Shown: piece by piece, positions 11,001-31,136 of the stretch
Numbering within the stretch: the first letter of the stretch is position 1
Layout of the letters: every line of letters starts with the position of its first letter
Assembly (NCBI GenBank): GCA_965215505.1
Contig: OZ244065.1
Location: 4,384,001 to 4,448,000, forward strand
Direction: 5' to 3'
Length of the DNA: 64,000 nt
Origin: Capsulimonadaceae bacterium
Lineage (GTDB): Bacteria > Armatimonadota > Armatimonadia > Armatimonadales > Capsulimonadaceae
Program-made: the position numbers and the translations under genes
Notes under the pieces: generated by a model
Told to the model about the DNA's origin: nothing
The model's database searches: none
What the model saw: only the letters and a program-made list of their open reading frames with translations

Positions 11001-11281
11001 CACAGGTCACCCGCGCCCCGCGCCAGCAGGCCGGGCGCGGAGGCGACCAGGATGCGGTAGGCGGTCTGACGCAGTCCTCGGCCCGTGCCTTCCAGCGTCC
11101 AGGACAGCCGGGGGGCGGGAGTGTCAACGCCCAGGGGGTCCGCGACATACCCGCAGCGCAGGGTACCGACGTGGAGTGACCCGGCGGGCTGAGGCGCGGC
11201 GAGGCAGGGCGTCGGCCCGCCGGGCAGCCAGAGGGCGGCCAGGAGCAGGCCGAGTAGCGGCGGGAGTTTTGATGCAGGCAT
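8066..11281 (-). CDS. Alpha-L-rhamnosidase (GH78) with inserted F5/8-type C (discoidin) domain
   Basis: Signal peptide; PLGVDTPAPRLSW, GLGQYEMSVNG, TDCPTREKLGW, GLGDW and SQDHFMFG motifs; WVQIDLG...ARYVRV discoidin insert. Confidence 0.92.
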   Translation of the reverse strand: MPASKLPPLLGLLLAALWLPGGPTPCLAAPQPAGSLHVGTLRCGYVADPLGVDTPAPRLSWTLEGTGRGLRQTAYRILVASAPGLLARGAGDLWDSGAVASDRTNQIAYAGKPLRSGGRCWWKVRVVDQAGRPSAWSAPARWTMGILRPADWQGGEWIGRDAAVGNAALIGYHASEAQRQDDVKWVQIDLGRAVALSAVRLLPMQHAGRDGFGFPLRFRVEAANEAAFQHPETVTDQSSADYPNPGVGPVAFAAHAVTARYVRVTATKLWLRDAAITGTAAYAFALRGVQAISAGKEAAVAGVAAEDSVESSEWGRAALMTSGGLGARTDSVLLRRGFTVRPGLTRAVAFVCGLGQYEMSVNGARVGDAVLSPGWTQYNKTCLYDTYDITAALRPGANAVGLFLGNGMYNIHPGRYTKITGSFGPQRAFGLLRLEYADGTAQDVVTDGHWKVGAGPITFSSIYGGEDYDARLAPAGWDRPGFDDGRWASPVITAGPGGVLRGLSCAGPPIRRFGALLPISRRQISPTAAVYDLGRNASLLLRLRVRGARGASVRVTPSELVKENGDIDDQMCGGDSYWTYTLSGGGDESYASRFYYRGGRYLKVETRPAPGGASLPVVEVVEGDVIHADAPAVGHFACSSERYNKTASLIRQAQLNNMVSILTDCPTREKLGWLEEDHLNGPALRYNFDMATLMSKMVNDMADAQRPNGLVPSTCPDYPHWDEGAFTNPPEWGSACIAVPWQQYEFDGDLTPLRAHYDTMRRYVDYLSARAQGHVVGFGLGDWYDAHGDGASKLTPIGITATAFYFYDSQTLARVAALLGRPDDAAHYSRQAQEILAAYNQKFFDAATDSYATGSQASNAFPLAMGMVEPAHRPAVLDALARDLQSKGPTAGEVSLRFVLESLADGGRSDLIDTTFDTDTQGYGLQVKLGKTSLTEGWNGGSSQDHFMFGQINEWFYRSLAGIRDDPDGPGFRKIIIRPAAVPGLTWAGAAYDSRAGRIVSGWKREGGRLTLRVSIPANTTATVYVPAHDPRSVLEGGLPVSPGRGVEFLRSEDGASVYHVGSGDYVFTSR

Positions 11282-11284
11282 GGC

Positions 11285-14200
11285 TCAGTCTTTCCCGTCT
11301 ACCGTCAGGTGCGCCGTCTTGCCCAGCACGGACAGGGCGGGGTCAACCGCGCTGCCCATCTGCGGCGGCATGACGTCGTAGTCGCCCGGCGTGGCGGCCT
11401 GCAAGTGGTAATCGATCTCGTGCTGGCCGGGCGTCAGGTCCGAGATAAAAAAGACGACCTTGTCGTCACGCACGTCCGTATAGTCCCACCAGTTGGACCA
11501 GTCCGCTGTGTCGTCCCCGGACGCCTCGGCGACCCGGAACCCCGCCGGCAGCGGTTCCTCGACGACCACGCGCGAGGCGGGCCGAGTGGCATTAATAATG
11601 AGCCGGACGAGGACGCCCTCGCCCGCGTTCAGATGCGTGTCCGGGGTAGGCACGGTGTCCTCCCAGAGCCAGTTGCGGCGGCTCGTCGTCCGCATGTAGG
11701 TCCGCCTGATCCGATACCCGGATGGGGCGGGCGGCAGGGGCGCCCCGCCGGGGCGAAACACGGCGTTCCAGACGCGCGCCAAGAGCGGCGTCGGCGGGTC
11801 GGGCGCGGGCTGCGTGAGGCACTGCCGCAGTTCCAGCGAGTAGTACAGGCGGCCCGTCCCGACCTTCCGGAGCGAGACCGTGTTCTCGCCAATCTGCAAG
11901 GCCGTCCCAGGCACGTCCAGCGAGACCTCGGGCCGGTCCGCGGAGTCCGGCGTGAAGCGAACGGCGCGGACCTCATGCCCGTTGACCAGGACGTAGGCCT
12001 GGAAGTTCGGCGACGACTCGCCGCCCCGCGCCGCGTAGATCGCCAGGGCGCGCACCGCCACGGCGGTCGGGACCGGGCCGACCCAGTGGTCGCCGCTGCG
12101 GGCGGTCATCAGCCAGCGGGCCGCGCCGTCAATGCGCGCATCATCGGGAGTGACTGCCTCGGCCGCCAGCAAAGCCCAGGCCGTCGCCTCGGCGTCGGGC
12201 ATCTCGGCCCCCGCCCCCTCCGCCGTCCGGTGCCCGCCCCCTGCCCACGAGACGAGGCTGCCGGTCTGCCGCCCGACCTCCCACAAACGGCGCATCAGCG
12301 TCCGCGCCTCGCCGGCCTCTTCGCCGCCCAAGGCCTGCTCGGCCAGGGCGGCCCGCGCCAGATCGGCAGGGCGGGGCAAGGCGTCCGGGCCGCGCCAGCG
12401 CCTTTGGAGCCAGTGCAGGTTCGCTCGGGCGTCTTTCACATCGCCCCCCGCCGCCAGTGCCAGCGCGGCCAGCGAGACATTCGCCTCGTCCGGGTGCCCG
12501 TGTCCGCGCTCGGCGTTGGCGAGCGAGGCCAGCGTCTCGTTCGCGGCCTTCTGGACCTTTGCCGGGACCGGCAACCCGCCGGAGCGGGCCTGCGTCAGCG
12601 CCCAAGCCGCCCAGGCGGTCATCCAGACGTCGGGCTTGCTGGTGGAGAACCAGCCCCACCCCCCGCCGTCGCCTTGCAGGCGGACCAGTCGCAAGGCGGA
12701 GCGCCGGGCGACGTTTTGCAGCCGCGCCCGCGTGCCCGCGTCCGTCACCAGGCCGGGTGCCCCCAGCGCGGCGGCGTCGCAGAGCAGGGCCGAACCCGTC
12801 GCGTCCGTGCTTTCATAGGGGTAGCCCGAAATCCAGACCGTGGCGGGAAGCAGCGTCGTGCTGATGGAGGGCGCGAGCCGGACCGTCAGCCGACTCGCGC
12901 CTTGAATGGCCGACGGGTCGAGCGTGACCGACTGCGAAACGTCGTGCAGCAGCGTCCCCGAGTGCCAGACGTTCTGCATGACGCCGTGCGGCAGCAGCGG
13001 CACCGGCTCCTCCACGCCGTCGGACAGACCCCCGCCGGACGCCGTCATCTGGACGGGGACGGGCGGCGTGCCGTTTGCCGCGACGGCGTCGGGTGCGGTC
13101 ACAGTCCAGGTCAGCCGGGCCGGGCGGCCCGGCTCCACATCCACGGTCCGGGCCGCGTCACCCGACACGCCCAGCCCCGGCGCGGACAGGCGGATCGTGG
13201 CGTGGATCGTCCCGGCGGTGTTGTTGTGGACCAGGCCGATCAATCGCCCGGTGTCCCCGGCCACCAGGAAAAGCGGCGTTTCCAGCCGGACCAGCAGGTC
13301 CTTCCCGACCGTGACGGCGGCGACGGCCTTGCCGACGCGCGTGTCCGACGAGTGCCCGTAGCTCGTGATGCGCCACGTCGTCAGCGTGTCCGGCAGCGTG
13401 AAATGCACCGCAATGTTCCCGTCCGGGCCGGTCAGGAGGGCGGGCTTCCAGAGGGCGGTGTCGGGGAATTTGCGCCGGATGTCAATGCTGGTCCCGCCCT
13501 TGTCCACGTCGCCCAATGTCTCGACCTTGCAGGAGTAGTCGGTTTCGACGGCGTCTTCTTGGGCTGGCTGGAAGGCGTCGCCGATGGTGCCGGGCGGCTC
13601 CGGCTTGATGGCGTAGACGGCACCGTCCACCACGCCCAGCGAGACTTCGGCGGGGACGGGGCTGCCTTGCGCGTCCCGCGTATGCACGAGGATCGTGGCC
13701 GAGTCGCCCGGATGGTACGCCGTCTTGTCCGTGCTGAGGCTGACCAGCAGGCCGCGCCGGTCGTCGTCTACCGTCAGAGTCGCCTCACTGCTCTCGAACT
13801 GCTTGCCGTTGACCGCGCAGACCTTGACCCGGACCGAAGGCGCGTCGTCCAGTGTCACCGGGAGGTCCACGGCGTTCGAGTGCCGGGTCAGTGCCACGGT
13901 GAAGGCGCGGTAAAGCGTCGTCCCTTCCAGAGTGACCAGCGCAGTTGGGCCTGGGTGGGCCGTGTTGACCAGCAGGTGCGCGGTCTGCCCTGGCGTGTAT
14001 TTTGCCCGGTCCAGCACGACGGATAGGTCGGACAGCCGGGCGGGCAGGGCGCGGTCCGCGTCGGCGGTGTCGCCGGGGACCCAGACGTCGGTGTCCGCCG
14101 TGACCTTATTGCCGCGCCGGTCCGTCCCGCCGGCATGCACCGTCAGGAGGCCGTTCTGCGTGGCCGTGACGGTCGCCGTCGCCGAACCGTCGGCCCCGGT

Positions 14201-16285
14201 CGTGACGTGGACGTCCTTGACGGTCGTGGCCGCCCCTTTGCCGTCCGGCGTGTCCGCCTCATAGCCCGCGCTGACCTCGACATCCTGACCCGGCAAAGGC
14301 GCGTCCGAGGCGTTCCGGGCTGAAACCGTGACCGTCACCGCGTCGCCCTTGTGGCAGGCGTAGACGTCCGGCGTCGCCTTCAGCGAGAACTCGCCCTGCG
14401 CGACCGTCACCTTGCCCTCCGCGCTGACCGTGTGGCCGGAAGCGTCGTCCACGTCGGCGTCTACCGTGTATTCTTCGTCCCCGCCCGGCTCGCCGCTCCT
14501 GGTCGGCAGCCGCAGGAAGGCCTGGCCGTTTCCGTCCAGCGTGACATCCTTCTCGACCGTCGGCTCGCCGCCCGTGTCGGGGCTGTCGCCCGTGTTCTCA
14601 CTGCCGCCGCTGCTGAAGCCGCGCAGGATCACCTTCGCCCCGCTCACCGGCGAGCCGTAGTAGTAGGCCGCCGTGACCGTGGCGTCTACGGTGTCGCCAT
14701 GCACATAGCGGGGGGCGGAGAACGTCACCGTCGCCTGATACTCGGGCTTGTGGTAGGCGGCGACGCTGAACGTCGCCGACTCCCGGTGGCCGTCAATGAA
14801 GGCCTTCACCGTGTATTCGCCCGTCAGGGCCTCGGGCGAGAGGCTCAGGACGGTGTTCCACGACCCCAGCGCGTCCGTCGCCGTGTCCTGGTGGCTGACG
14901 AGGTTGTCCTGCGGGTCCCGGATGTCCAGGGTCACGGGCCGGGCCGCTGGCACCGCGAAGCCCCGGCCCTGGTCGAACCACCGGCTGATGCCCTCCAGAT
15001 TGACGGCCTGGCCGGGCCGGTAGACGGGCCGGTCGGTGTAGAGGAAGGCGCGCAGGGACCGGCCCGCGATGCTCGCCGAGGCGGCCGGGTCTGCCTGGTC
15101 GCCGCCTTCGGCGTCTGCATCGTCCGACGCCCCGTTCCTGCCAGGCGTGTTCAGGCCGAAAGACAGCGCGACCGTCGAGCCGCCCGCCTGCGCCACCAGA
15201 ATGCCTTCGCTCTCCGCCGATGCGCCCGCCGCCGAGAGCCGGGCCAGGCCGTCCGCGCCGGTCGTCGCTTCGCCCATAAGGCGGCTCGTGCCGGCCTCGG
15301 CGAACAGCCTCAGACGCGCGTGGGGGACGGGGCGGCCCGTCGCCAGATCGGTGACGAACGCCAACGTCCGCGTCCCGAAGGTCTTGCGGATCAGGGCCAG
15401 GTTCGTCACGCGCACCCAGCCGGTCGCCGTGACCGTCTTGGCGTCCTCGTCCGCCGTCGCCGTCACCCGGTACAGGCCGGGCGAGAGCGGCCCGAGCGGG
15501 ACGCGCTCGTAGAACGATCCCTCCTTGTCTGCGTCGCCGACGGTGTAGGTCCAGTGCCGCAGGGGGGTGAACTCGCCGCGCCAGAGCGGCCCCGGGCCCT
15601 CGGCGTTGTCGTGGACGGAGCGGGCCAGCAGGGAGGGCTTGTGGCCCAGCGCGCCGCCGACGTCCAGCCTGTCCAAGCGCAGGTGCAGGACGCGCGTCAG
15701 CAGAGCGCCTTGCAGGGGCAGCAGGGGAGTCTCGGCGGGCGTCCAGTCCAGCGTCGTCGCGGTGAAGTTCAGCGTGGACTCCTGCCGCTTCAACGGGATC
15801 GTGATCTGCGCGGCCTGCTCCTCCAGCACGACCACCGTGTGGGTGTCGTCGGACGAGTGCAGGCTGGTGGAGGCGCTGACCGCGTACTCGCCGACCCGGA
15901 CGTGGGCCAGCTCAAACCGCCCCTGGGCGTCCGTGTGGGTGCGCCACTCCGTCCGGGGCGCAGCGGAGCCGCCGGACGGGCCGACCTCGGCGTCATCTTT
16001 GCTGTCCTGCGTCCAGCCGAGCGGCGGCTCCGCCACGGCCTGCATGGAGGTTTCCACGTCCTGGACGGCGTCTTCGCCGCTCTTGGTATCATCTTTCAGC
16101 GACAGGGACACGTCGGCATCGGCCAGCGGCAGGCCCGAAACAGAGTCCACGCAGACGCCCCGGACCGTTCCGGTCGGCGGCTGGGACCAGGCCAGGGCCG
16201 CGCAGATCAAGGCGGTCAGGGCGATCAGGAGGGTGAGCAGCAGGCGTCGCCGCCGGTCGTCAGGCACGAGGGCGGGACGTGACAT
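11285..16285 (-). CDS. Bacterial alpha-2-macroglobulin family protein (MG2/A2M) with N-terminal carboxypeptidase-regulatory-like domain
   Basis: LYTDRPVYRPGQ, DKTAYHPGD, RRKFPDTALWKP, LPDTLTTWRI, Q..DGGWGWF and EEPLPAGF motifs; thioester CxEQ replaced by YPYESTDA. Confidence 0.9.
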   Translation of the reverse strand: MSRPALVPDDRRRRLLLTLLIALTALICAALAWSQPPTGTVRGVCVDSVSGLPLADADVSLSLKDDTKSGEDAVQDVETSMQAVAEPPLGWTQDSKDDAEVGPSGGSAAPRTEWRTHTDAQGRFELAHVRVGEYAVSASTSLHSSDDTHTVVVLEEQAAQITIPLKRQESTLNFTATTLDWTPAETPLLPLQGALLTRVLHLRLDRLDVGGALGHKPSLLARSVHDNAEGPGPLWRGEFTPLRHWTYTVGDADKEGSFYERVPLGPLSPGLYRVTATADEDAKTVTATGWVRVTNLALIRKTFGTRTLAFVTDLATGRPVPHARLRLFAEAGTSRLMGEATTGADGLARLSAAGASAESEGILVAQAGGSTVALSFGLNTPGRNGASDDADAEGGDQADPAASASIAGRSLRAFLYTDRPVYRPGQAVNLEGISRWFDQGRGFAVPAARPVTLDIRDPQDNLVSHQDTATDALGSWNTVLSLSPEALTGEYTVKAFIDGHRESATFSVAAYHKPEYQATVTFSAPRYVHGDTVDATVTAAYYYGSPVSGAKVILRGFSSGGSENTGDSPDTGGEPTVEKDVTLDGNGQAFLRLPTRSGEPGGDEEYTVDADVDDASGHTVSAEGKVTVAQGEFSLKATPDVYACHKGDAVTVTVSARNASDAPLPGQDVEVSAGYEADTPDGKGAATTVKDVHVTTGADGSATATVTATQNGLLTVHAGGTDRRGNKVTADTDVWVPGDTADADRALPARLSDLSVVLDRAKYTPGQTAHLLVNTAHPGPTALVTLEGTTLYRAFTVALTRHSNAVDLPVTLDDAPSVRVKVCAVNGKQFESSEATLTVDDDRRGLLVSLSTDKTAYHPGDSATILVHTRDAQGSPVPAEVSLGVVDGAVYAIKPEPPGTIGDAFQPAQEDAVETDYSCKVETLGDVDKGGTSIDIRRKFPDTALWKPALLTGPDGNIAVHFTLPDTLTTWRITSYGHSSDTRVGKAVAAVTVGKDLLVRLETPLFLVAGDTGRLIGLVHNNTAGTIHATIRLSAPGLGVSGDAARTVDVEPGRPARLTWTVTAPDAVAANGTPPVPVQMTASGGGLSDGVEEPVPLLPHGVMQNVWHSGTLLHDVSQSVTLDPSAIQGASRLTVRLAPSISTTLLPATVWISGYPYESTDATGSALLCDAAALGAPGLVTDAGTRARLQNVARRSALRLVRLQGDGGGWGWFSTSKPDVWMTAWAAWALTQARSGGLPVPAKVQKAANETLASLANAERGHGHPDEANVSLAALALAAGGDVKDARANLHWLQRRWRGPDALPRPADLARAALAEQALGGEEAGEARTLMRRLWEVGRQTGSLVSWAGGGHRTAEGAGAEMPDAEATAWALLAAEAVTPDDARIDGAARWLMTARSGDHWVGPVPTAVAVRALAIYAARGGESSPNFQAYVLVNGHEVRAVRFTPDSADRPEVSLDVPGTALQIGENTVSLRKVGTGRLYYSLELRQCLTQPAPDPPTPLLARVWNAVFRPGGAPLPPAPSGYRIRRTYMRTTSRRNWLWEDTVPTPDTHLNAGEGVLVRLIINATRPASRVVVEEPLPAGFRVAEASGDDTADWSNWWDYTDVRDDKVVFFISDLTPGQHEIDYHLQAATPGDYDVMPPQMGSAVDPALSVLGKTAHLTVDGKD

Positions 16286-17809: not shown

Positions 17810-18436
17810 CTACGGGTCCGCCTGCCCCACCAGGGCGGCGCGATACCCCGCACCGACATCCAGGTCGTGGCAGGTCCACCGCGCATCCGCCGTCGGCGTC
17901 GCCGCCGAGGAGAGTCCCACGCCCAAAGCTTTCAAGAAAGCCTCGTGCCGGACCCAGGCCCGCGTGAAGGCGGCGGGCCGGTCGGCGGGCGGCAGCGAGG
18001 ACAGCCGCGCCGCCTCCCCGGCGGGCAGATACCGTCCGGCCAGCGACACGGCGGCGAGGTCGGGGCAGACGCGCTCGATGTCTATGCCGACCGTGCGGTC
18101 CCAGGCCAGCGCGAACAGGGCCACGCCACCGCAGTGAGACAGGTTGAAGCCCAGGGCCGCGCCGTCCCCTTCCAGGAAAGGCTTGCCATGCTCGGTATAG
18201 TGGAAACGGAGCGAGGCAGGCGGGCAGCCCAGGGCCTCGCCGAGCAGCCCGCGCAGCAGGCCGCGGGCGGCTTCGAACCGGTCCGCGTCGAGCGGGCGGT
18301 GGAAGCGGGCCGCCCGTGCGCGCTCGTCCGAGGAGAGGGAGAGTGCCAGTGCGTCCCGCTCCCCCGGCGGCAGGTCCAGATCCGCGCGCCAAACCCCGAT
18401 GCCCGGCGTCAAGACCTCAACCGGCGTCAAGCGCAT
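17810..18436 (-). CDS. 4'-phosphopantetheinyl transferase (Sfp type)
   Basis: HGKPFL, FNLSHC, VGIDIE and WVRHEAFLKALGVGL motifs; overlaps the NRPS 3' end. Confidence 0.93.
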   Translation of the reverse strand: MRLTPVEVLTPGIGVWRADLDLPPGERDALALSLSSDERARAARFHRPLDADRFEAARGLLRGLLGEALGCPPASLRFHYTEHGKPFLEGDGAALGFNLSHCGGVALFALAWDRTVGIDIERVCPDLAAVSLAGRYLPAGEAARLSSLPPADRPAAFTRAWVRHEAFLKALGVGLSSAATPTADARWTCHDLDVGAGYRAALVGQADP

Positions 18437-20993
18437 CAAGGCAGGCCCCCAGCCGGTCTCCCAGCGCGCCGACGTCTCCCAGCAGGCAGGTGACGTGCGT
18501 CCCCGGCACGTCGCACACGGTCAGGGCCGGCGCGACCTCGCGCCACAGGGCGAACGGGTCGCCGGGGAACGTCTCGGGGTCGTCGGCGGCGCGCAGCAGG
18601 TGGACCGGGCCGGCATAGGGGCGCGCGACATAGGCCGCCGCCGCCCGGTCGCAGTCCTCGATCAGACCCGCCCCGCCGCGCCCCTTCGCCCGCCGGCCCC
18701 AGCTCTGCACCAAAGCCCAGGCCGGCAGCAAGGCCTGCTGCCAGGCGAGGAAGCGCTGCGCGCTGCCCGCCAGGCGGCGCAGGGCCAGCCGGAGCCGGGG
18801 GTTGATGGCGTGGACCTCGATCAGCGCCAAAAACTCGACCGTCTCGCCCGAGGCGGTCAGCATCCGCGCCATCTCGTAGCCGATCAGGCCGGACCCGCAG
18901 AAGCCGCCGAGCCGGTAGGGGCCGTGCGGCTGGGCCGCGCGCACGACCGCGACATATTCGGCGGCCAGGCTCTCGATCGTCAGCGGCCCGCGCCCCCGCT
19001 CGGTGGGGGCGTGGAGGAGGAGCATCGGCTGGTCCGCGTGCAGGCGGCGGGCCAGGTGGTGCGCGTAAAACCCTCCCAGCGGGTAGTAGCCGTGCAGATA
19101 GAAGAAGGGCCGACGTGAGCCGCCCGCGAGCGGCGTCGGCGGCGGCATCGGGGCGGGTGCCTCGTCCCGGCGCAGGAGGGCAGCCAGGGCCTCCACCGTC
19201 CCGCCCTCGTACAGCGCGGACACCGGCACGGAACGGCCGCAGGTCTGCGCGATCCGGTCCAGCAGCCGGGCTGCCAGCAGGGAATGCCCGCCCAGTTCCA
19301 GGAAATCGTCCCGGATGCCGACGGGCCGGATGTCCAGCAGGTCCTCCCAGACCTGCGCGAGCTGCTGCTCCAGGGGGTTCCGGGGCGCGATAAAGTCCGG
19401 GCCGCGCTCCCGCAACTCCCCGGCGGGCGGCGGCAGGGCCGCCCGGTCCCGCTTGCCGCTGGGCGTCAGCGGCAGCGCGCGCAGGGGGGCGACGACGGCG
19501 GGGACCATGTGCGCGGGCAGAGTCCGCGCCAGGAAGTCGCGCAGGGCTGTCCCGGTCGGCGAGGTCCCGGCCCGCAGGACGACATAGGCCGCCAGCCGTT
19601 TCTCACCCGGCCGGTCTTCGCGCAGGGCGGCGACGGCGTCCAGGATGTCCGGATGGCCCAGGAGGGCCGCCTCGATCTCGCCCAGCTCGATCCGGTATCC
19701 ACGCATCTTCACCTGCGTGTCCGCACGGCCGAGATAGTAAAGCTCCCCCCCGGCCCCTTGCCGGGCCAGGTCGCCCGTCCGGTACAGCCGCGCGCCCGGC
19801 GTCCGGTCGAAGGGGTGGGGTAGGAAGCGCTCGGCGGTCAGCACGGGCCGGCGCAGGTAGCCGCGCGCCAGCCCGGCCCCGGCGATGTAAATCTCGCCCG
19901 TCTCGCCCCCGGAAACCGGGCGCATGTTTTCGTCCAGCAGGAACAGCTCGGTGCCGGCTATCGGACAGCCGATGGGGATGGAATCGGGCAGCGGGTCGCC
20001 GTCCAAGCCGCGCGGAACCGTCCAGCAGGCCGCGTCAATGGTCGCCTCGGTCGGCCCGTAGACGTTGTGGAGGTCGGCCACGAGCTTCGCGTGGACGAGG
20101 CGCGGCAGGTCCGGCGGCATCGCCTCGCCGCCGCAGAACAGGTGCCGCAGGTCCCGGCACCGCACGATGTCCGGGTGCGCCAGCAGGACCCGGAGCTGGG
20201 CCGGGCCGAAGCCGGCCACGGTGATCCGCCGCTCGGCCAGCGTCCGGACGACATAACCGGCGTCCACCGTCCCGCCGGGGCGCATCAGGACCAAAGTCGC
20301 CCCCACCGTCAGCGGCCAGAAGATGGCCCAGACGGACGGGTCGAAGCTGAACGAGTACGACTGGAGCATCCGGTCGCCCGCTGTCAGCGGGAAGCACCCC
20401 TGACGCCAGTGCAGGTTGTTACAGGCCCCCCGGTGCGCCAGCAGGACGCCCTTCGGCTGCCCGGTCGAGCCGGAGGTGTAGATGACATAGGCCAGGTCGT
20501 CCGGCCCGGACCCGCCCGCCAGGTCTCCGCCCTGCTCGCCGTCCTCCAGGCCCGCGCCCAGGGGAATGACGCGCGCTCCGGCGGGGAGGAGGCCCCGCAG
20601 GCGCGGCTGCGCCAGGGTCAGGGTGGGCCGGGCGTCTTCCAGCAGGAAGGCCAGCCGCTCGGGCGGGTAGGCGGGGTCGAGCGGCAGGTACGCCCCGCCG
20701 GCCTTCAGGACGGCCAGCAGCGCGACGATCGTCTCCGGCCCGCCGTCCGCGCAGACGCCTACGACGGCGTCCGGGCCGGCCCCGTTTACCCGCAGGAGGC
20801 GGGCCAGCCGGTTCGCGCGCCGGTTCAGGTCCCCGTAGGTCAGGCGGCCGCCGTCAAAGACGACCGCGGGGGCGTCCGGCGTGCGTGCGGCCTGCGCCTC
20901 CACCATCCGGTGCAGGCATTCTTCCGTGCGGGCCGGATCGGCGCGGCGCGCGGCCAGGGCGGCTCGCGCGGCCAGGGCAGCTCGCGCGGTCAC
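18417..20993 (-). CDS. Monomodular NRPS-like enzyme, A-T-TE
   Basis: A-domain cores LKAGGAYLPLD, YVIYTSGSTGQPKG, NVYGPTE, YRTGDL, QVKMRGYRIELGEIE, SGKRDR; carrier motif DDFLELGGHSLL; TE GPYRLGGFCGSG...VPGTH. GTG start at 20993 overlaps the upstream TGA (GTGA). Confidence 0.93.
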   Translation of the reverse strand: MTARAALAARAALAARRADPARTEECLHRMVEAQAARTPDAPAVVFDGGRLTYGDLNRRANRLARLLRVNGAGPDAVVGVCADGGPETIVALLAVLKAGGAYLPLDPAYPPERLAFLLEDARPTLTLAQPRLRGLLPAGARVIPLGAGLEDGEQGGDLAGGSGPDDLAYVIYTSGSTGQPKGVLLAHRGACNNLHWRQGCFPLTAGDRMLQSYSFSFDPSVWAIFWPLTVGATLVLMRPGGTVDAGYVVRTLAERRITVAGFGPAQLRVLLAHPDIVRCRDLRHLFCGGEAMPPDLPRLVHAKLVADLHNVYGPTEATIDAACWTVPRGLDGDPLPDSIPIGCPIAGTELFLLDENMRPVSGGETGEIYIAGAGLARGYLRRPVLTAERFLPHPFDRTPGARLYRTGDLARQGAGGELYYLGRADTQVKMRGYRIELGEIEAALLGHPDILDAVAALREDRPGEKRLAAYVVLRAGTSPTGTALRDFLARTLPAHMVPAVVAPLRALPLTPSGKRDRAALPPPAGELRERGPDFIAPRNPLEQQLAQVWEDLLDIRPVGIRDDFLELGGHSLLAARLLDRIAQTCGRSVPVSALYEGGTVEALAALLRRDEAPAPMPPPTPLAGGSRRPFFYLHGYYPLGGFYAHHLARRLHADQPMLLLHAPTERGRGPLTIESLAAEYVAVVRAAQPHGPYRLGGFCGSGLIGYEMARMLTASGETVEFLALIEVHAINPRLRLALRRLAGSAQRFLAWQQALLPAWALVQSWGRRAKGRGGAGLIEDCDRAAAAYVARPYAGPVHLLRAADDPETFPGDPFALWREVAPALTVCDVPGTHVTCLLGDVGALGDRLGACLDALDAG

Positions 20994-21949
20994 AGTGCGC
21001 TCCCCAGGAAGCTCGCGACGTCCTCGGACGTGATCTCCGGCTCGCCGGGCGCGACGTGGTCCAGCTTGCCCTGACGCATCCACCCTTCGAGCTGTTCCAC
21101 CAGGCTGAACAGGTGGTCGAACGAGTCCACGACGAACAGCAGCGGCTGGTAGAAGTTCGGCAGGAATCCCTGGTTGACCACCCATTCGAGCTGGAGCGAA
21201 TACCTCTGGACCTGTCTCGGGTCGGCGGCGCGGTCTATCTCGCTCCGGGAGCTGAGGAGTGCGCTGCCGTAGACCTTCACCCCGTCCCCCCCGCCCGGCG
21301 CGCGCATCAGGCCCGTCTCGATCGTGAACCAGAAGAAGCGCGCCATCGCCCGGATCATGCTCGTCAGTCGCCGTATCTTCTCCTCCTCGTCGGCCACCCC
21401 CGAGACCAGCTCGACCGCCGTGTGCGCGCACCGGCCGAACTGCACCAGCACGTCGGCGAAGGCCGGGTCGGTGTGCATCGGGACGTGACCGGTGATGTCG
21501 TGGAAGATGTCCGGCCAGGGGGAGAATGACTGCGCCGCATCCCGCATCGTCACCGTCGTCGGGAACTCGCGGCGGCGCAGGCAGTCGAAAAAGAGGAAGG
21601 CGGGCAAGTAGCCGCTGACGCCGATCGCCCGGAAGCCGGTCAGGGGCGCGAGGAAGCGGTTGACGTCCTCCAGGCGCGGCACCCGGTCCGGGTCGAGCCG
21701 CAGCGAGGCCAGCCCGCGCAGGAACGGCGCGTTCGCGTGCCGTACCCAGCGCGACTCCATCCCCGCATACAGCCGCCGCCAGGCGGCGTGATTCTCTTCG
21801 GAGTACAACTCGTAAGGCTGATGGATGAACCGCCGCCCCGCCAACTGGGCACCCTCGATGAAGGCCGATTTGCCCGTCGTCAGCCCGGTTCCCTCGGACT
21901 GTGAGAGTGACTTTTCGCTGTTCGAGAGTGACTTTTCAATGATCGCCAA
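20990..21949 (-). CDS. Pterin-dependent aromatic amino acid hydroxylase (phenylalanine 4-monooxygenase family)
   Basis: YSEENHAAWRRL, VPRLEDVNRFL..LTGF, PDIFHDITGHVP and FWFTIETGL (2-His-1-Glu iron triad), YGSALLSS, YQP..FVVDSF. TTG start at 21949 is inferred. Confidence 0.9.
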   Translation of the reverse strand: MAIIEKSLSNSEKSLSQSEGTGLTTGKSAFIEGAQLAGRRFIHQPYELYSEENHAAWRRLYAGMESRWVRHANAPFLRGLASLRLDPDRVPRLEDVNRFLAPLTGFRAIGVSGYLPAFLFFDCLRRREFPTTVTMRDAAQSFSPWPDIFHDITGHVPMHTDPAFADVLVQFGRCAHTAVELVSGVADEEEKIRRLTSMIRAMARFFWFTIETGLMRAPGGGDGVKVYGSALLSSRSEIDRAADPRQVQRYSLQLEWVVNQGFLPNFYQPLLFVVDSFDHLFSLVEQLEGWMRQGKLDHVAPGEPEITSEDVASFLGSAL

Positions 21950-22149
21950 GTGTCCATCCCCTGCGCCCCTATCTTGAAGACGGGACGCCCTGATGAACGT
22001 AAAGTGCAGATTCAGTGCCAACAATAAGGAAAATGGGGGGCGAGCGAGGAAACAGGTATATCACACAGGGTCGGTGTCAGGGGGAAAGTGTCAAGATTCA
22101 CAACGGCGCGGTGAGGCAGGCGACCATCAGGAACGCGGCCCGTCAGGAG

Positions 22150-22860
22150 TCAGGAACGCAGCCCGTAGCCGACCCCGCGCCGCGTCTCGAGCAGGTCGCC
22201 GGCCTGCACCGGTATCTTGGCGCGCAGCCGACGGATGTGGATGTCCACAGTCCTCTCGCCGCCCTCGAAGTCCACGCCCCAAACCATGTCCAGCAGGCGG
22301 TCGCGGGCGAAGAACTTGCCCCGGTGCAGCGTCAGGAAGCGCAGCAGATCGTACTCGCGCGGCGTCAGCGGGAGGATGAAGCCGGACGCGGAGCGCGCGC
22401 AGCCCGCGGCCAGGTCGAGGACCACGTCGGCGACGGTCAGCGTGTCGCCGGACTGGATGTGGCGCTTGCGGAAGCCCAGCAGGGACAGGCGGGCCAGCAC
22501 CTCGGCGGGCGCATAGGGGGGAAGCAGGAAGTCGTCGGTATAGGCGGGCCAGTCCGGCTGTTCCAGGTGCCTGGACGTCAGCAGGGCCAGCCGGGCGGGC
22601 GCGGGCAGCTCCTCCCCCCAGGCGTGCAGGAGCAGCCGCCCGGCGTGGCGCAGGGGCAGGCAGTCGGGGGCGGTGGAGAGGTCCGCCAGCAGGACGTCCG
22701 GGGGCCGGCCCTCGAAGGCGCGGCAGAGCGCGTCCATCGCCGCCGCCCCGTCGTCCAGGGCTGTCCGCTGCACGGCATAGCCGGCCAGCTTGAGGGCGCC
22801 GACGAGGGCGGCGGCGGGTCCGCCTTTTTCATTGGGGGCCAGGACGAGGACGTTCAGCAT
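22150..22860 (-). CDS. OmpR/PhoB-family regulator with atypical receiver domain, GlnR-like
   Basis: C-terminal LTPREYDLLRFL...VWGVDFEGGERTVDIHIRRLRAKI..IETRRGVGY-type winged helix; degenerate receiver; no kinase nearby; adjacent to nitrate/nitrite genes. Confidence 0.8.
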   Translation of the reverse strand: MLNVLVLAPNEKGGPAAALVGALKLAGYAVQRTALDDGAAAMDALCRAFEGRPPDVLLADLSTAPDCLPLRHAGRLLLHAWGEELPAPARLALLTSRHLEQPDWPAYTDDFLLPPYAPAEVLARLSLLGFRKRHIQSGDTLTVADVVLDLAAGCARSASGFILPLTPREYDLLRFLTLHRGKFFARDRLLDMVWGVDFEGGERTVDIHIRRLRAKIPVQAGDLLETRRGVGYGLRS

Positions 22861-23053: not shown

Positions 23054-23404
23054 TCACACCGTCAGCCACATCTCCCCGCCCTCGGACAGACGGACCGGGT
23101 AGGTCTGGATGTCGCAGTCGCCCATCAGCCCGACCCCCGTCGTCAGGTCGAACTTGCGCGAGTGGAACGGGCACATGAGGATCGTGCCCCCGACCAGGCC
23201 GTCGGCCAGCGGGCCGTTCCGGTGCGGGCACTCCGCCTGGGTGGCGTAGACCGCCCCGGCGCGGGTGTGGAACACGGCGACTTCCAGGCCGCGCACCGGG
23301 AAGACGCGCCCCTCGCCCATAGGGATCTGGTCCACAGGACCGAGGGAGACTTCGGTTCTTTCCAATTCAGCCCTTTCCAATTCAGCCCTTTCGATTGTCA
23401 TCAT
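23054..23404 (-). CDS. nirD: Nitrite reductase small subunit (Rieske ferredoxin)
   Basis: CPHRNGPL and CPFH Rieske motifs; overlaps the nirB stop. Confidence 0.88.
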   Translation of the reverse strand: MMTIERAELERAELERTEVSLGPVDQIPMGEGRVFPVRGLEVAVFHTRAGAVYATQAECPHRNGPLADGLVGGTILMCPFHSRKFDLTTGVGLMGDCDIQTYPVRLSEGGEMWLTV

Positions 23405-25875
23405 GCGTTCACCACCGGGAGGGTCGAGACGAACTGGTTGGCCGTGGCCGGGGTGTAGGCTTCCAGCCAGGGGTCAACGTAGGCGTCCACGGTCGCCTGC
23501 ATCGTCGCGTCCAGCCGGGCGGCGATCCCCTCGCCGTCCTCCACGACGACGGCCTTGATCTTCTCCAGCCCGACCCGCTCCACGAAGCCGTAGGTCCGCT
23601 CCAAATACTTGGCGTTCTCGATGTAGTACTGCATGAACCGGCCCATGATCAGGAGCACCTCCTCGTGGGAGCCGACGCTGCACAGCACGTCCCCCTTGCG
23701 GATGTGCGCGCCCGCCGCGCCGCCGATGAAGATCTCCCAGCGCCCGCCCTCGACGGCCACCGCGCCCAGGTCCTTGACCATCGCCTCAGAGCAGTTGCGC
23801 GGGCAGCCCGCCGTCGCCAGCTTCATCTTGCCGGGGCTTTCGACCCCCTGGAAGCGGCGCTCGATCTTGATGCCCAGGCCCGTGCTGTCCCCGACCCCGT
23901 AGCGGCAGAACTCGGTCCCGACGCAGGTCTTGCAGGTGCGGAAGGACTTCGCGTAGGCGTGGCCCGAGGGCATGTCCAGGTCCTTCCAGACGTTCGGCAG
24001 GTTTTCCTTGGTGATCCCCAGGAGGTCAATGCGCTGGCCGCCGGTGATCTTGACCATCGGCACGTCGTACTTGTCGGCGACGTCCGCGATGCGCCGCAGC
24101 TCGGCCGCCGACGTGACCCCGCCGTAGATGCGCGGGATGACCGAGAACGTCTTGTCCTTCTGGATGTTGGCGTGGACGCGGTCGTTGATGTAGCGGGCGT
24201 CCCGCTCGTCCTCGTACTCCGCGCCCCAGAGCGACTTCAGCAGCGAGGCCAGGCCCATCTTGCTGGTGACCTCTTCCTGGCCCCCCGCAAGCGCCTCGAA
24301 AACGGACGAGACGGACTTTAGCTGCCGGTCCATGATTGCCTGCACCAAGGCGGGCTTCGGCAGCGGCACGCCCGGCACATAGTAGTGGATGCTCGGGTCC
24401 TCCTCCACCTGGCCCTCGGCGGCCCACTCGACCACCTCCTGCACCAGCTTCTTGCACGACCCGCAGCCCGCGCCCGCCCGCGTCGCCTCCATCACCATCT
24501 TCAGGGACCGCTTGCCGCCCTCGACGCACTTCCTGATCTGGCCCTTCGAGACGCCGTTGCAGTTGCAGATCTGGGCGCTGTCCGGCATCTCCAGCATCGT
24601 CGTCTCGGTGGACGGTGCCCCGATGTCGAACAGCAGCGACAGCCGCTCCTCGGGCAGCGGCGTCCCCCGGTCAAAGGCCTGCATCAGATAGGCGACTTTG
24701 TTCAGGTCGCCCAGCATCATCGCCCCGATCAGCATGCCGTCCCGGATGATCAGCTTCTTGTAGGTCCCGCGCTTCGGCTCGGAGAACATGACCACTTCGT
24801 CCCGGTCGTCCATCGGCTCGGTCACGCCCATCGAGGCAAGCTCGACGCCCATGACCTTCAGCTTGGTGGCGATCTTGGACCCGTGGTAGGCGGCATCCAG
24901 GTTGCGCCCCGTGATGTGGTCGGCCAGCACCTGCCCCATCTCCCACAGCGGCGCGACCAGGCCGTAGACCCGCCCCCGGTGCTGGGCGCACTCGCCGACG
25001 ACGTAGATGTCCGGGTCGTCCACCGACCGCATCTGGTTGTCGGTGACGATGGCGCGCTCGACGGTCAGGCCGCAGGCGTGCCCGATCTCGGCGTTCGGCT
25101 TGATGCCGGTCGAGATGACCACCATGTCGCAGTCCAGTGTCGTGCCGTCCTTGAACTCAAGGCCCGTCACGCTGTCCTCGCCCAGCACGCGGGCGGTGTT
25201 CTTCATGGTGTGGACGTGGACGCCCATCTTCTCCATGATGCCGCCCAGAATCTTGCCCGCCGCCGGGTCGAGCTGCTGGTTCATCAGGTGCCCGCTGATG
25301 TGGATGACATGCACCTCGACGCCGTAGTTGATCAGCCCGCGCGCCGCCTCCAGGCCCAGCAGTCCGCCGCCGATGACGGCCGCCTTGCGGCACTTGTTGG
25401 CGTAGCCGGCGATCTTGTGGCAGTCGTCCAGGGTGCGGAACACGAAGACGCCGTGCTTGTCCGCCCCGTCGGGCGTTTGCAGGCCATCCATCGGCGGGAC
25501 GAAGGGCCGGCTGCCCGTGGCGATCATCAGCTTGTCGTAGGGCGTGACCTGGCCGTCGTCGCTGTGGACCTCTTTGCGCGCCCGGTCGATGTGCGTCACG
25601 CGGGCCGGGGCGTGGAGCTTCACGTCGTTCTCGGCGTACCACTCCATCGGGTTGAGGAAAATGTCGGAAGGGTCCTGCGACCCGTTGAGGACGTTGGACA
25701 GGAGGATGCGGTTGTAATTGCCATACGGCTCGTCGCCGAACATGGTGATCTCGAACTGCTCGCCGCCGCCGCGCGCCAGTATCTCTTCGACCGTGCGCGC
25801 GCCGGCCATGCCGTTGCCGATCACGACCAACTTCTGCTTATCTGGAGTCTGAGTTAAAGTCTGAATATCTGCCAT
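23401..25875 (-). CDS. nirB: NAD(P)H-dependent assimilatory nitrite reductase large subunit
   Basis: VIGNGMAG and GGGLLGLEAA Rossmann motifs, ICNCNGV...GCGSC BFD cluster, KTCVGTEFC and GCPRNC siroheme/4Fe-4S ligands. Confidence 0.96.
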   Translation of the reverse strand: MADIQTLTQTPDKQKLVVIGNGMAGARTVEEILARGGGEQFEITMFGDEPYGNYNRILLSNVLNGSQDPSDIFLNPMEWYAENDVKLHAPARVTHIDRARKEVHSDDGQVTPYDKLMIATGSRPFVPPMDGLQTPDGADKHGVFVFRTLDDCHKIAGYANKCRKAAVIGGGLLGLEAARGLINYGVEVHVIHISGHLMNQQLDPAAGKILGGIMEKMGVHVHTMKNTARVLGEDSVTGLEFKDGTTLDCDMVVISTGIKPNAEIGHACGLTVERAIVTDNQMRSVDDPDIYVVGECAQHRGRVYGLVAPLWEMGQVLADHITGRNLDAAYHGSKIATKLKVMGVELASMGVTEPMDDRDEVVMFSEPKRGTYKKLIIRDGMLIGAMMLGDLNKVAYLMQAFDRGTPLPEERLSLLFDIGAPSTETTMLEMPDSAQICNCNGVSKGQIRKCVEGGKRSLKMVMEATRAGAGCGSCKKLVQEVVEWAAEGQVEEDPSIHYYVPGVPLPKPALVQAIMDRQLKSVSSVFEALAGGQEEVTSKMGLASLLKSLWGAEYEDERDARYINDRVHANIQKDKTFSVIPRIYGGVTSAAELRRIADVADKYDVPMVKITGGQRIDLLGITKENLPNVWKDLDMPSGHAYAKSFRTCKTCVGTEFCRYGVGDSTGLGIKIERRFQGVESPGKMKLATAGCPRNCSEAMVKDLGAVAVEGGRWEIFIGGAAGAHIRKGDVLCSVGSHEEVLLIMGRFMQYYIENAKYLERTYGFVERVGLEKIKAVVVEDGEGIAARLDATMQATVDAYVDPWLEAYTPATANQFVSTLPVVNA

Positions 25876-26006
25876 TTTGCTGCCTTTCGGAGACACGAGG
25901 TTTCCCGAGAGAACGGGTAGCATCAGGAAAAGGCAGCACTGCCGGGGAAGAGCGTCGGTGCAGAGGGGAGCGTGGAGGCCACAGCATCGTGGTCAACTCT
26001 GCAAAC

Positions 26007-26038
26007 AGTATGAATCACAAATGTTTCCGCCGTGTTTC
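26007..26038 (-). promoter_or_regulatory. nirBD promoter: GlnR-type box GAAAC-N6-GAAAC followed by a CATACT -10
   Basis: Minus strand GAAACACGGCGGAAACATTTGTGATTCATACT; same architecture at 31075-31106. Confidence 0.7.
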
Positions 26039-26048
26039 GGAGACACTG

Positions 26049-26182
26049 CCCCCCGACCCCTCTCCCGCAAGCGGGAGAGGGGAGTCAGAGAGGACAAAGG
26101 CTAAGAGTGAAGGCGCAGAGGAAATGATCCGTCTCTTTCGCCCCCCTCTCCCGCTTGCGGGGGAGGGGCCGGGGGTGGGGGT
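26049..26182. repeat. Inverted pair of CCCCTCTCCCGCAAGCGGGAGAGGGG palindromic repeats
   Basis: Two hairpin units in opposite orientation; related units at 57646-57700 and 59111-59237. Confidence 0.65.
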
Positions 26183-26192
26183 TCTTCAAACC

Positions 26193-26540
26193 CTACACCT
26201 CCAGCAGCCCGACGTCCAGTACCAGGGTCCCGGACACCCCCTCGGGGGCGGCCACGGTGGCTTCCAGCTTGGTCCCGGACATCAGATCCTCGACCACGGC
26301 CAGGGCGACATGAACGTCGCCGCGCGCCCCGATGGGGAAGAGCCGCATGGGCCGGCCGTCACGCATCAGGGTGACGTAGATGAGTTCGGCGGACGAGTTG
26401 CCCGCCCGGAAATAGACGAACTGGGTCCGCTTGCCGACCGGGACGGTATAGGTCAGCTCGGCCGAGAGCGGGACGGGGTTATGCAGGCCGCGCCCCTCGA
26501 ACGGGAAGACGCCTTGCAGCAGTTGGGGTTTCGAGTACAT
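26193..26540 (-). CDS. Small conserved protein of the nitrate assimilation cluster (paralog of 30495..30857)
   Basis: LQGVFPFEGRG, YFRAGNSS, RLFPIG, HVALAVVED and DVGLLE motifs shared with the paralog. Confidence 0.75.
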   Translation of the reverse strand: MYSKPQLLQGVFPFEGRGLHNPVPLSAELTYTVPVGKRTQFVYFRAGNSSAELIYVTLMRDGRPMRLFPIGARGDVHVALAVVEDLMSGTKLEATVAAPEGVSGTLVLDVGLLEV

Positions 26541-26648
26541 AAGTATTTGTTTCTCCTTAGATTTGAGGCTCGTATCAGGGAAGTCTGTCAGCTCGGGGAA
26601 GTCTGTCAGCCGCCCGGCCCCGTGCTGGGGCCGGGCGGCTGAGGGGTG

Positions 26649-28283
26649 CTACGCCGGGTTCATCTCCACGCCGCCCGCGCCGACCAGGACGCGCTCCGGC
26701 TCGGCATGGGCCTTCGCCACGCCGCCCGCGCCGAGCCAGGTCCGCTCCCAGACCGGGGTGACGGCCCGCAGCGTGATCAGGGCGATCACCGCGATGCCCG
26801 CGAAGGCGAAGAAGCCCGCGCCGTAGGTGTGGAAGATGTCGTGCAGCGACCCCATCTCCTGCGCCAGATAATAGCCGCCGACGCCGCCCGCCGCGCCGAC
26901 CAGCCCGGTCATCACGCCGATCTGCTTGCGGAACCGCTGCGGGATGAGCTGGAAGACCGAGCCGTTGCCCATGCCCATCGCGCCCATCAGGATGAACAGC
27001 AGCGGGAAGGTGATGGCCTTGCTCGTGATCGTGAAGCCGATCACGGCGGCGGTCAGGATCGCCGTGGCGTACAGCACGGACAGCATCCGGATGCCGCCGA
27101 TCCGGTCGGCCAGCAGGCCGCCGACGGGCCGCAGGAACGAGCCGGAGATGATGAACGGCCAGGTGAACAGGCCGACCGCGACCTTCGGGTAGTCGTACTG
27201 GTCCACGAAGAACGTGTTGATGAACGACGACATGCCGACGAAGCCGCCGAAGGTCACGAAGTACAGCAGGCAGAAGGTCCAGGCGTCGCCGGTCTTGAGG
27301 ATGCTGGTATAGTCCGAGAGCTTGACGGCGGGCGCGTGGCCCGGCGCGTCCTTCGCCATCAGGCTGAAGACCGCCAGCGTGAGGACGATCGGGATCATCA
27401 GCAGGCCGAAGACGCCGTGCCACCCGACGACCGGGACCAGGAGCGGCGCGAAGATGGTCGCAAGGATCGTCCCCGAGTTGCCCGCCCCGGCGATTCCCAT
27501 CGCTAGGCCCTGCAAATGAGGCGGATACCAGCGCGAGGCCAGCGGCAGCGAGATCGCGAACGAGGCCCCCGCCAGGCCCAGGAAGAAGGCGATGAAGACC
27601 AGCGAGTTGTAGTCGGTGCCGAACTTCCAGCCGACGATCAGCGGCAGCAGCGTCACGGCCAGCGAAACCATGCCGACCCGCTTGGAGGCGAACCGGTCCA
27701 CCAGGACGCCGAGGAAGATGCGCCAGAAGCCCGCCGCCAGCAGGGGCAGGCCGACCAGGAACAGCTTGACCCCGGCGGGGTAGCCGTTGGCGAGCGGCTG
27801 GAACGCCTTGCCGTCCTTCGCCAGCGCGGCCATCGGCTTGAGCGGGATGACGTTGTCATACGGGACGCCGTGCGCGGTCGGGGCCGCCGCCACCTGGATC
27901 AGCTTGGACTTGGCGTTGATCGCCGCCAGGCCCGCCGCGATTGTTTCGGGGCTGGTGCTGTCCAGGATGTACTTCTCGGCGGGCTTGACGCTGTTCCGGG
28001 TGGCGTCTTTAGGCACGCCCGGCTTGAGGAGCAGGTGGTTGACCGTCTTGGCCTCCGACTTGGTCGCGTCGGGGCCTTTCATGATCAGGGTGTAGGGCGT
28101 CTCCTTGGTGATCATCGCCGAGGGCGTGATCCGCAGGTTCGCGCCCGTCAGGGCCGGGTCGGTGGCGATGAACGGCATCAAAGCACCCAGGATGACCCAG
28201 ACCATGAACGAGATGTCGAAGTGCAGGAACGCGCTGAACAGTGAGGGCGCGTGACCGCTGGTTTTCAGGTCACTGATTTTCAT
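26649..28283 (-). CDS. Nitrate/nitrite MFS transporter (NarK/NasA family)
   Basis: FLHFDISFMVW, GLAGASFAISLPLASRWYPP, GIAGAGNSG, YFVTFGGFVG, LRPVGGLLADRIGG and GMGNGSVFQL motifs. Confidence 0.93.
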   Translation of the reverse strand: MKISDLKTSGHAPSLFSAFLHFDISFMVWVILGALMPFIATDPALTGANLRITPSAMITKETPYTLIMKGPDATKSEAKTVNHLLLKPGVPKDATRNSVKPAEKYILDSTSPETIAAGLAAINAKSKLIQVAAAPTAHGVPYDNVIPLKPMAALAKDGKAFQPLANGYPAGVKLFLVGLPLLAAGFWRIFLGVLVDRFASKRVGMVSLAVTLLPLIVGWKFGTDYNSLVFIAFFLGLAGASFAISLPLASRWYPPHLQGLAMGIAGAGNSGTILATIFAPLLVPVVGWHGVFGLLMIPIVLTLAVFSLMAKDAPGHAPAVKLSDYTSILKTGDAWTFCLLYFVTFGGFVGMSSFINTFFVDQYDYPKVAVGLFTWPFIISGSFLRPVGGLLADRIGGIRMLSVLYATAILTAAVIGFTITSKAITFPLLFILMGAMGMGNGSVFQLIPQRFRKQIGVMTGLVGAAGGVGGYYLAQEMGSLHDIFHTYGAGFFAFAGIAVIALITLRAVTPVWERTWLGAGGVAKAHAEPERVLVGAGGVEMNPA

Positions 28284-28368
28284 GATGTCTCCTCGTAAGA
28301 TCGGTACAGATTGCTAACATAAAGGGGAGACGCGACGCTGCGTTGAGAAACTCTAAAGGCCCTACGGC

Positions 28369-30857: not shown

Positions 30858-31074
30858 CCGCGTCAGCCGCTGCTGGCGCGTCTCGGTCGTCGTGGTCTGT
30901 GTGTCGGCATCAAGGAAAGGGTTGGAATCGCTTATCACCGGGAATCGCTTTCTTTTCAAGAAGTTCAGAAAAGGCGGCGTCGCCGGGAGGAGCCACAGGG
31001 CGGTGTGGCGAACCAACGGAAGGGACATGAGGGGGAGAAGCCGGCGCGTCGGTGCGTTCGGCTTGACAAGTCCT

Positions 31075-31106: not shown

Positions 31107-31136
31107 GGCTGAGTTTTGGGGATAAAAATCTTGCAG

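Follow-up and report, generated by a model that had tools for sequence, protein, structure and literature searches.

A 64,000-nucleotide (64-kb) stretch of a Capsulimonadaceae genome (contig OZ244065.1, positions 4,384,001 to 4,448,000; called the window, with its own numbering used throughout) contains a minus-strand cassette of three overlapping genes at 17810..21949. The genes encode an aromatic-amino-acid hydroxylase, a single-module nonribosomal peptide synthetase (NRPS) and an Sfp-type 4'-phosphopantetheinyl transferase (PPTase). We propose, with about even confidence, that the cassette specifies a dedicated pathway in which the hydroxylase would make a non-standard hydroxy-aromatic amino acid, the NRPS would activate it and a thioesterase (TE) domain with a cysteine nucleophile would release it. 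The most informative features are the TE cysteine and the substitutions in the hydroxylase substrate pocket, and neither was part of a previous reading of the same DNA made from its letters (the sequence-only reading).

Architecture of the cassette

The first gene (P0001, 319 aa, 20990..21949, minus strand) begins with TTG and encodes a pterin/Fe(II) hydroxylase that matches Pfam Biopterin_H with an E value of 8.8e-32 and belongs to the pocket class termed W/T/A below. The NRPS gene (P0002, 858 aa, 18417..20993, minus strand) begins with GTG and matches Pfam AMP-binding, AMP-binding_C, PP-binding and Thioesterase. Its adenylation (A) domain, placed by Pfam and alignment, covers residues 32-514 (19452..20900), and Pfam detects no condensation (C) domain in the protein, where only ~25 residues precede the A domain. 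The carrier (T) domain (19173..19367, Pfam PP-binding) has the motif GGHSLL with Ser571 encoded at 19281-19283. The TE domain (18420..19130) has the motif GGFCGSG with Cys699 at 18897-18899 and His833 at 18495-18497. The PPTase gene (P0003, 208 aa, 17810..18436, minus strand) begins with ATG and has the two-lobed Sfp-type fold defined by Pfam AASDHPPT_N and ACPS, at a length within the expected ~200-240 aa. Its best NCBIfam match is HetI, with a score of 135.9 against a cut-off of 370, and it is not a HetI equivalog. The protein database also includes this PPTase, on a contig of 6,177,771 bp.

The hydroxylase and NRPS genes overlap by 4 nt and the NRPS and PPTase genes by 20 nt, and the cassette genes have ribosome-binding sites. 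At the first junction, GTGA at 20993-20990 supplies both the NRPS start codon GTG and the hydroxylase stop codon TGA, and GGGGAG lies 6 nt upstream of the GTG. At the second, the PPTase ATG at 18436 falls within the NRPS gene, 20 nt from its end at the stop codon 18417-18419. The sequence-only reading had described three overlapping genes in one direction, an NRPS devoid of a C domain and a co-encoded Sfp PPTase, and all of this is borne out by the gene boundaries and the Pfam matches. The hydroxylase start is backed by P0125, a separately called protein of 319 aa that is its nearest database match (99% identity, 100% coverage, 331,171-bp contig). An alternative 1004-aa open reading frame (ORF) exists at the NRPS locus; because the NRPS family members are 819-893 aa long, the 858-aa start is favored. 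A promoter and terminator scan gave nothing convincing inside the cassette, and GC content does not mark it off as an island. With three genes in ~4.1 kb, the cassette is a tractable test case.

Short tandem peptide repeats open both coupled genes. The repeat is EKSLSNS followed by EKSLSQS in the hydroxylase (21890-21949) and ARAALAAR followed by AALAARR in the NRPS (20940-21000).

The hydroxylase has a remodeled substrate pocket

The window protein and its 120 best relatives (121 sequences) were aligned to compare their active sites. The residues at P0001 positions 145, 212 and 230 sort these proteins into two crisp classes, 37 with W/T(S)/A and 84 with E/F/G, which part on one branch with an SH-aLRT value of 99 in a quick IQ-TREE tree with midpoint rooting. 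The iron ligands of P0001 (H150, H155 and E211) align with those of C. violaceum phenylalanine hydroxylase (PAH). The Fe triad, R136 (the equivalent of human R270) and S233/S234 are invariant in both classes (37/37 and 84/84). R136 and S233/S234 are taken to be the binders of the substrate carboxylate, by their role in PAH, and P0001 keeps both R136 and S233. The canonical E/F/G enzymes carry the database name "phenylalanine 4-monooxygenase" and come from Gemmatimonadales and Chthonomonadaceae genomes, and the only named W/T/A member is P0159 from an "Armatimonadetes bacterium."

Sixteen alignment columns discriminate the classes, and 11 of them fall in five active-site segments of P0001 (141-145, 153, 212, 230 and 263-265). 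These segments correspond to human PAH residues 276-280 (with E280 replaced by W), L288, F331, G346 and T378-V379-T380 (replaced by L-P-N), with human numbering transferred via the C. violaceum PAH alignment and Fig. S22 of PMC7027792. The class-specific residues of P0001 are F142, S143, W145 (codon 21515-21517), T153, T212 (21314-21316), A230 (21260-21262) and L263-P264-N265. Nine pocket positions (the equivalents of 277, 278, 280, 288, 331, 346 and 378-380) differ from all 84 canonical relatives, and W145, T212, A230 and P264 stand where every canonical sequence has E, F, G and I. P0001 is thus not canonical at its pocket. F331 stacks on the substrate ring, and positions 331 and 346 tell Phe 3-hydroxylases, in which F331 is replaced by Cys and G346 by Thr, from 4-hydroxylases and control regiochemistry (PMC7027792, section 9 and Fig. 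S22).

Family-level scores place P0001 near the boundary of the canonical group. It narrowly passes the NCBIfam equivalog model NF008877 for Phe 4-monooxygenase (258.9 against a cut-off of 247), scores below the cut-off of TIGR01267 (154.9 against 264.75) and is 64-70% identical to canonical enzymes. The invariant iron and carboxylate ligands combined with a remodeled pocket suggest an active hydroxylase of free amino acids with a changed substrate or ring position. These comparisons support a specialized paralogue with a remodeled substrate pocket rather than an ordinary catabolic PhhA, and its pocket may be of a third type among pterin-dependent aromatic hydroxylases, besides those of the 4-hydroxylases and the Phe 3-hydroxylases. 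An ordinary catabolic PhhA was the case that the sequence-only reading had named against itself, and the pocket substitutions and the class split run counter to it. That reading had also noted no phhB or tyrosine catabolic genes nearby. Pfam analysis of 64 ORF translations across the window agrees, with no phhB, HPPD, homogentisate genes, aminotransferase, other NRPS or polyketide synthase (PKS).

The NRPS is an amino acid-activating A-T-TE module

The NRPS belongs to a family of 29 close relatives with 49-78% identity and the same A-T-TE architecture; none of the database matches is identical, the best being 78% identical. It scores 428 against the cut-off of 317 for the NCBIfam amino acid adenylation domain TIGR01733. 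The window protein was aligned with 28 family relatives and 16 more distant A-T-TE proteins (45 sequences). The α-amino-binding Asp (D218), the catalytic Lys (K514) and the carrier Ser (S571) are invariant in 45/45 sequences. The presence of D218 and K514 points to an α-amino acid as the substrate. An oxidase insert of the indigoidine type (A-Ox-T-TE) was not found by Pfam, which detects only AMP-binding and AMP-binding_C in the A domain, ~58 residues apart. By its domains and catalytic residues, the predicted protein is a type I A-T-TE module acting on an amino acid.

The specificity code was read by anchoring on the A-domain core motifs, and the ten code positions were taken to be those of GrsA. 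The same mapping yields what we recognize as the standard Gly, Val, Thr, Asp, Pro and Ser codes in other matches. The code of the window NRPS is DPWGFGVIDK, identical in 26/28 of the aligned family relatives, and the similar codes DPWAFGVIDK and DPWATGCIDK occur in the 16 more distant A-T-TE proteins, which are mostly cyanobacterial. Compared with the Phe code, DPWGFGVIDK has Gly at two side positions and Asp at the last variable position. A full-text literature search for code strings of the DPWGFGVIDK type returned no paper, and one code supplement has no DPW codes. The family has a nearly invariant A-domain code with no assigned substrate.

One relative (P0419, 1933 aa) is an A-T-C-A-T-TE protein whose first A domain has the code DPWGFGVIDK and whose TE has Cys. 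Its second A domain has the code DLTKVGEVVK, which we take to be Asp/Asn-like. The same amino acid may thus start a dipeptide elsewhere.

A cysteine nucleophile in the thioesterase

The usual TE nucleophile Ser is replaced by Cys699 in the window NRPS. Cys occupies this position in 29/29 family sequences and Ser in 16/16 of the more distant, mostly cyanobacterial A-T-TE proteins. His833 is invariant in the alignment, and the candidate acidic residues by alignment are E726, which follows strand 6, and D803/D804, which follow strand 7. The best solved-structure match of the TE is AB3403 (4zxh) with an E value of 4.4e-13, and its aligned nucleophile is also Cys. Only ObiF1, SulM and AB3403 have been described as solved NRPS TEs with a Cys nucleophile (PMC11298585). 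With Cys at the nucleophile position and the His retained, the Cys699 TE is by sequence a member of an AB3403-like Cys-nucleophile clade. Among the 150 nearest TE representatives, 134 have Cys, in stand-alone, A-T-TE, C-A-T-TE and larger proteins. On clustering at 50% identity, the TE of the NRPS family collapses to a single representative at 273.6 bits, and the next match scores 154 bits. As judged from these matches, Cys-TEs are a large, barely studied clade, in which the NRPS family stands clearly apart as a branch of its own. Only three members of the clade have solved structures, one of them without a known product, and a minimal C-less NRPS with a terminal Cys-TE is of interest in this setting.

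The hydroxylase and NRPS genes appear linked in relatives

Gene linkage in relatives was estimated by a proxy, the exact match of longest-contig sizes among the relatives of each protein, compared across the three protein searches. The protein database is clustered at 90% identity with one contig size per cluster, and the counts are therefore lower bounds. By this measure, 12/29 NRPS family members are matched with a hydroxylase, 9/29 with a PPTase, 19/29 with at least one partner and 2/29 with both. No matched pair has conflicting source labels. Several of the shared contigs are short, among them contigs of 6175, 6434, 7245, 7451 and 7912 nt, and a size of only 6-8 kb indicates that the genes are adjacent. 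The NRPS-linked hydroxylases are all of the W/T(S)/A class (12/36 versus 0/84 canonical; Fisher p = 1.2e-7). In the control, 91 NRPS matches from outside the family gave one coincidence, a 4442-nt contig with differing sources.

The sequence-only reading had suggested checking whether the three-gene arrangement is conserved in relatives, and it had named a hydroxylase unlinked to the NRPS in relatives as evidence against its proposal. The hydroxylase-NRPS link in 12/29 members by the contig-size proxy counters the latter and upholds that part of the cassette. The PPTase does not share this standing, as it is matched in 9/29 members, in the nearer clade only. This distribution supports the hydroxylase-NRPS pair as the likely conserved core, to which the lineage of the window has added its own PPTase.

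A scan of genome contigs returned 76 loci, mostly through the generic motif YTSGSTGxPK. None of them had the motif of the NRPS family or a Cys-TE, and neither the hydroxylase and PPTase nor the membrane protein described below was present in any. Only two of these loci match the NRPS over its full length, and neither is the cassette. L024 is a 1343-aa ORF that lies inside a larger NRPS. L072, an A-T-TE gene from a Chthonomonadaceae genome, has RND efflux, two-component and 7TM-HD genes as neighbors. A tblastn search of a plasmid collection returned nothing above 60% identity.

Proposed pathway and alternatives

In the proposed pathway, the neo-functionalized hydroxylase would act on a free aromatic amino acid and, by using another ring position or another substrate, yield something different from ordinary para-tyrosine. 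The A domain would then adenylate an α-amino acid, most likely the hydroxylase product, and load it on Ser571 of the T domain, made holo by the co-encoded Sfp-type PPTase. Finally, the aminoacyl group would move to Cys699 and leave by acyl transfer, not C-domain chemistry. The outcome could be condensation with a second copy to form a linear or cyclic dimer, or capture by another nucleophile. It is distinctly unlikely, but would be of consequence, that the installed hydroxyl itself serves as the off-loading nucleophile, with the Cys-TE thioester attacked by the weakly nucleophilic phenol. The attack could be intramolecular, from an ortho-hydroxyl to a 3-amino-dihydrocoumarin-type lactone, or intermolecular, to aryl-ester-linked dimers or oligomers. 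Off-loading by a phenol would, if true, define a new class of small metabolite and extend pterin-dependent hydroxylases to a new regiochemistry, both conserved among soil bacteria that have received little study.

Several observations weigh against the dedicated pathway. The hydroxylase product is a predicted rather than a demonstrated substrate of the A domain. The code of another match, P0479, which we read as glutamine-type, has 7/10 letters in common with DPWGFGVIDK, and DPWGFGVIDK keeps Trp at the second variable position; together these would allow a polar aliphatic substrate. A Cys nucleophile is so common among related TEs (134/150) that it alone does not point to a particular chemistry. 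The linkage is read from contig sizes rather than from the contigs themselves, neither partner is matched in 10/29 NRPS family members, and the PPTase matches are confined to relatives with NRPS identity of at least 59%. No pterin-recycling gene was found by Pfam among the 64 ORF translations, a search that covers the 64-kb window.

The resemblance of the code to that of P0479 speaks for another explanation, the amide idea of the sequence-only reading, in which the NRPS would be a two-substrate ligase with MysE/Ebony-type logic. The A domain would activate and tether some other amino acid, perhaps a polar aliphatic one, and the TE would couple it to the hydroxylated aromatic compound that the hydroxylase provides. 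A precedent is MysE, a C-less A-T-TE protein in which the tethered amino acid is joined to another substrate (PMC12232313). An acceptor-forming enzyme such as a decarboxylase is absent from the window by Pfam. Given an A-domain code that has no known substrate, the ligase is no better supported than the dedicated pathway, and we regard it as unlikely. The A-T-TE protein could also act in trans as a loader whose Cys-TE passes the unusual aminoacyl group on to an assembly line encoded elsewhere, at a carrier protein or a thiol, similar to CmaE and SyrC, aminoacyl shuttles that use an active-site Cys. Shuttling of aminoacyl groups between carrier domains is established (PMC8748450), and P0419 has the DPWGFGVIDK A domain as the first module of an A-T-C-A-T-TE protein. 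Against such a loader, Pfam finds no other NRPS, PKS or free carrier protein in the window, the cassette has its own PPTase and the hydroxylase-NRPS pair recurs on 6-8 kb contigs. We regard this explanation as unlikely.

The translational coupling of the hydroxylase and NRPS genes and the location of several class-specific changes near the active-site entrance could be explained by hydroxylation on the carrier. The NRPS would load Phe or Tyr, the hydroxylase would act on the tethered form and the TE would hydrolyze it to the free hydroxylated amino acid. Other oxygenase families are known to hydroxylate carrier-bound substrates; we know of no pterin-dependent hydroxylase that does so. R136 and S233/S234 are invariant in 37/37 class members, and a thioester substrate is not expected for an enzyme with conserved carboxylate binders, which makes this sequence of events very improbable. 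The slimmest chance is given to coincidental neighbors, a housekeeping Phe 4-hydroxylase that is functionally unrelated to the NRPS. The NF008877 equivalog pass (258.9 versus 247) and the 64-70% identity to canonical enzymes would fit such an enzyme. The nine pocket positions unlike all 84 canonical relatives, the class-specific linkage to the NRPS (12/36 versus 0/84) and the lack of phhB or catabolic genes in the window do not.

Comparison with known systems

Literature searches, which took in papers outside subscription-only access, found no characterized cluster with this gene combination, and the plasmid collection holds none. The sequence-only reading had called the cassette probably uncharacterized, and these searches agree. 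Functionally, the nearest counterparts are the Phe 3-hydroxylases from pacidamycin and sanglifehrin biosynthesis, MysE, and the Cys-TEs of AB3403, ObiF1 and SulM.

PacX, SsaX and NpsK of the uridyl peptides and SfaA of sanglifehrin are likewise stand-alone bacterial pterin/Fe hydroxylase paralogues that feed an NRPS pathway (PMC7027792). Like P0001, PacX/SfaA-type Phe 3-hydroxylases are without the pocket Phe (F331) and Gly (G346) (PMC7027792, section 9 and Fig. S22). They differ from P0001 in the residues found there, with Cys and Thr (Ser in SfaA) at 331/346 compared to Thr/Ser and Ala in the P0001 class, which does not have the 3-hydroxylase signature. They also keep an acidic residue at 280 and Ile/Val at 379, where P0001 has Trp and Pro, and they reside in large multi-gene clusters rather than a three-gene cassette. 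This comparison with P0001 is one of pocket residues.

MysE (Ava_3855), of mycosporine-like amino acid synthesis, is also a C-less A-T-TE protein that uses an α-amino acid and needs a PPTase, and its code residues V223, S292 and D324 are serine-type, according to PMC12232313; the window NRPS has P, G and D. Pfam finds no MysE-type mysA/B/C genes near the cassette in the window, and the codes of the 16 more distant A-T-TE relatives are of the DPW type, unlike that of MysE. PacP of pacidamycin (A-T-TE0) is another C-less A-T-TE protein from a pathway that likewise has a hydroxylase paralogue, and its TE is inactive and lacks the catalytic triad (PMC8748450), whereas the window NRPS family conserves Cys699, His833 and the candidate acids. 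The A-T-TE layout is also that of TdiA, AtrA and AlfA, aryl-pyruvate enzymes that activate α-keto acids, unlike the window A domain, which keeps the α-amino-binding D218. Keto-acid-activating A domains are not known to have that Asp, and bacterial aryl-pyruvate A-T-TE enzymes include RalA and EchA. The TE of TdiA, AtrA and AlfA joins two identical units, as reported in PMC9047271 and PMC12105029.

Among the Cys-TEs, AB3403 of Acinetobacter baumannii has the motif GGWCFGG compared to GGFCGSG in the window protein, and its product is likewise uncharacterized (PMC11298585). AB3403 is a C-A-T-TE protein with a C domain, whereas the window NRPS is C-less, and the acid after strand 6 is Asp in AB3403 and mostly Glu in the window NRPS family. 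The ObiF1 (β-lactone) and SulM (β-lactam) TEs use a Cys nucleophile to release a small acyl group; the attacking nucleophile is an intramolecular β-substituent, the acid is an Asp after strand 7 and the SulM motif is Gln-Cys-Asn (PMC11298585). The window TE has Phe-Cys-Gly rather than Gln-Cys-Asn, with acids by alignment after both strand 6 (E726) and strand 7 (D803/D804). ObiF1 was matched through its A domain only, and ObiF1 and SulM are both missing from the TE-only structure search.

All parts of the cassette belong to known enzyme families, and the novelty would lie in the pocket type, the A-domain code and the C-less Cys-TE layout. The cassette could reveal the products of Cys-TE A-T-TE enzymes and the residues that set hydroxylase regiochemistry. 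It does not amount to a new principle, but it offers a small and promising target for genome mining.

Neighboring genes

A 488-aa hydrophobic membrane protein (P0004, 16260..17726, minus strand), probably multi-pass, is encoded next to the PPTase gene. The start of its gene, which has a GAGGAG ribosome-binding site, follows the PPTase stop by 83 nt, and the gene may be a fourth one, co-transcribed with the cassette. P0004 has no Pfam or NCBIfam match, and its protein Atlas matches are weak (≤0.84). The end of the gene overlaps by 26 nt the start of an ORF for a 1666-aa bacterial alpha-2-macroglobulin (11285-16285, minus strand), which is followed at 3935-11281 (minus strand) by a rhamnosidase, a fucosidase and a GH43 enzyme.

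On the other side, a 236-aa regulator-like protein with an OmpR-type winged-helix DNA-binding domain is encoded at 22150..22860 (minus strand), with Pfam Trans_reg_C as its only Pfam match. Its NCBIfam alignments cover residues 107-235, and the N-terminal half is divergent and has no Pfam receiver domain. The gene ends ~200 nt before the hydroxylase start, and a candidate promoter is located at 23004-22975. The predicted protein is a possible regulator and a candidate member of the cassette. The stop codon of this gene falls within a 17-nt direct repeat at 22127-22166 (TCAGGAACGCGGCCCGT, with a second copy of 94% identity at a distance of 23 nt), ~180 nt upstream of the hydroxylase start. The repeat may serve as a binding site or reflect a small duplication. 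A nitrate/nitrite assimilation set (23054-31727) borders the regulator-like gene on its upstream side and is made up of a Rieske NirD-like protein, a NirB-like reductase, an MFS transporter, a molybdopterin oxidoreductase and a MobA-like protein. The sole Rfam match over the window is a tRNA at 36570-36642. Farther along, the GC content is 0.58 at 52001-54176 compared to ~0.65-0.70 around it, over a 605-aa ORF (52359-54176, minus strand) that has no Pfam family, and this stretch could be foreign DNA.

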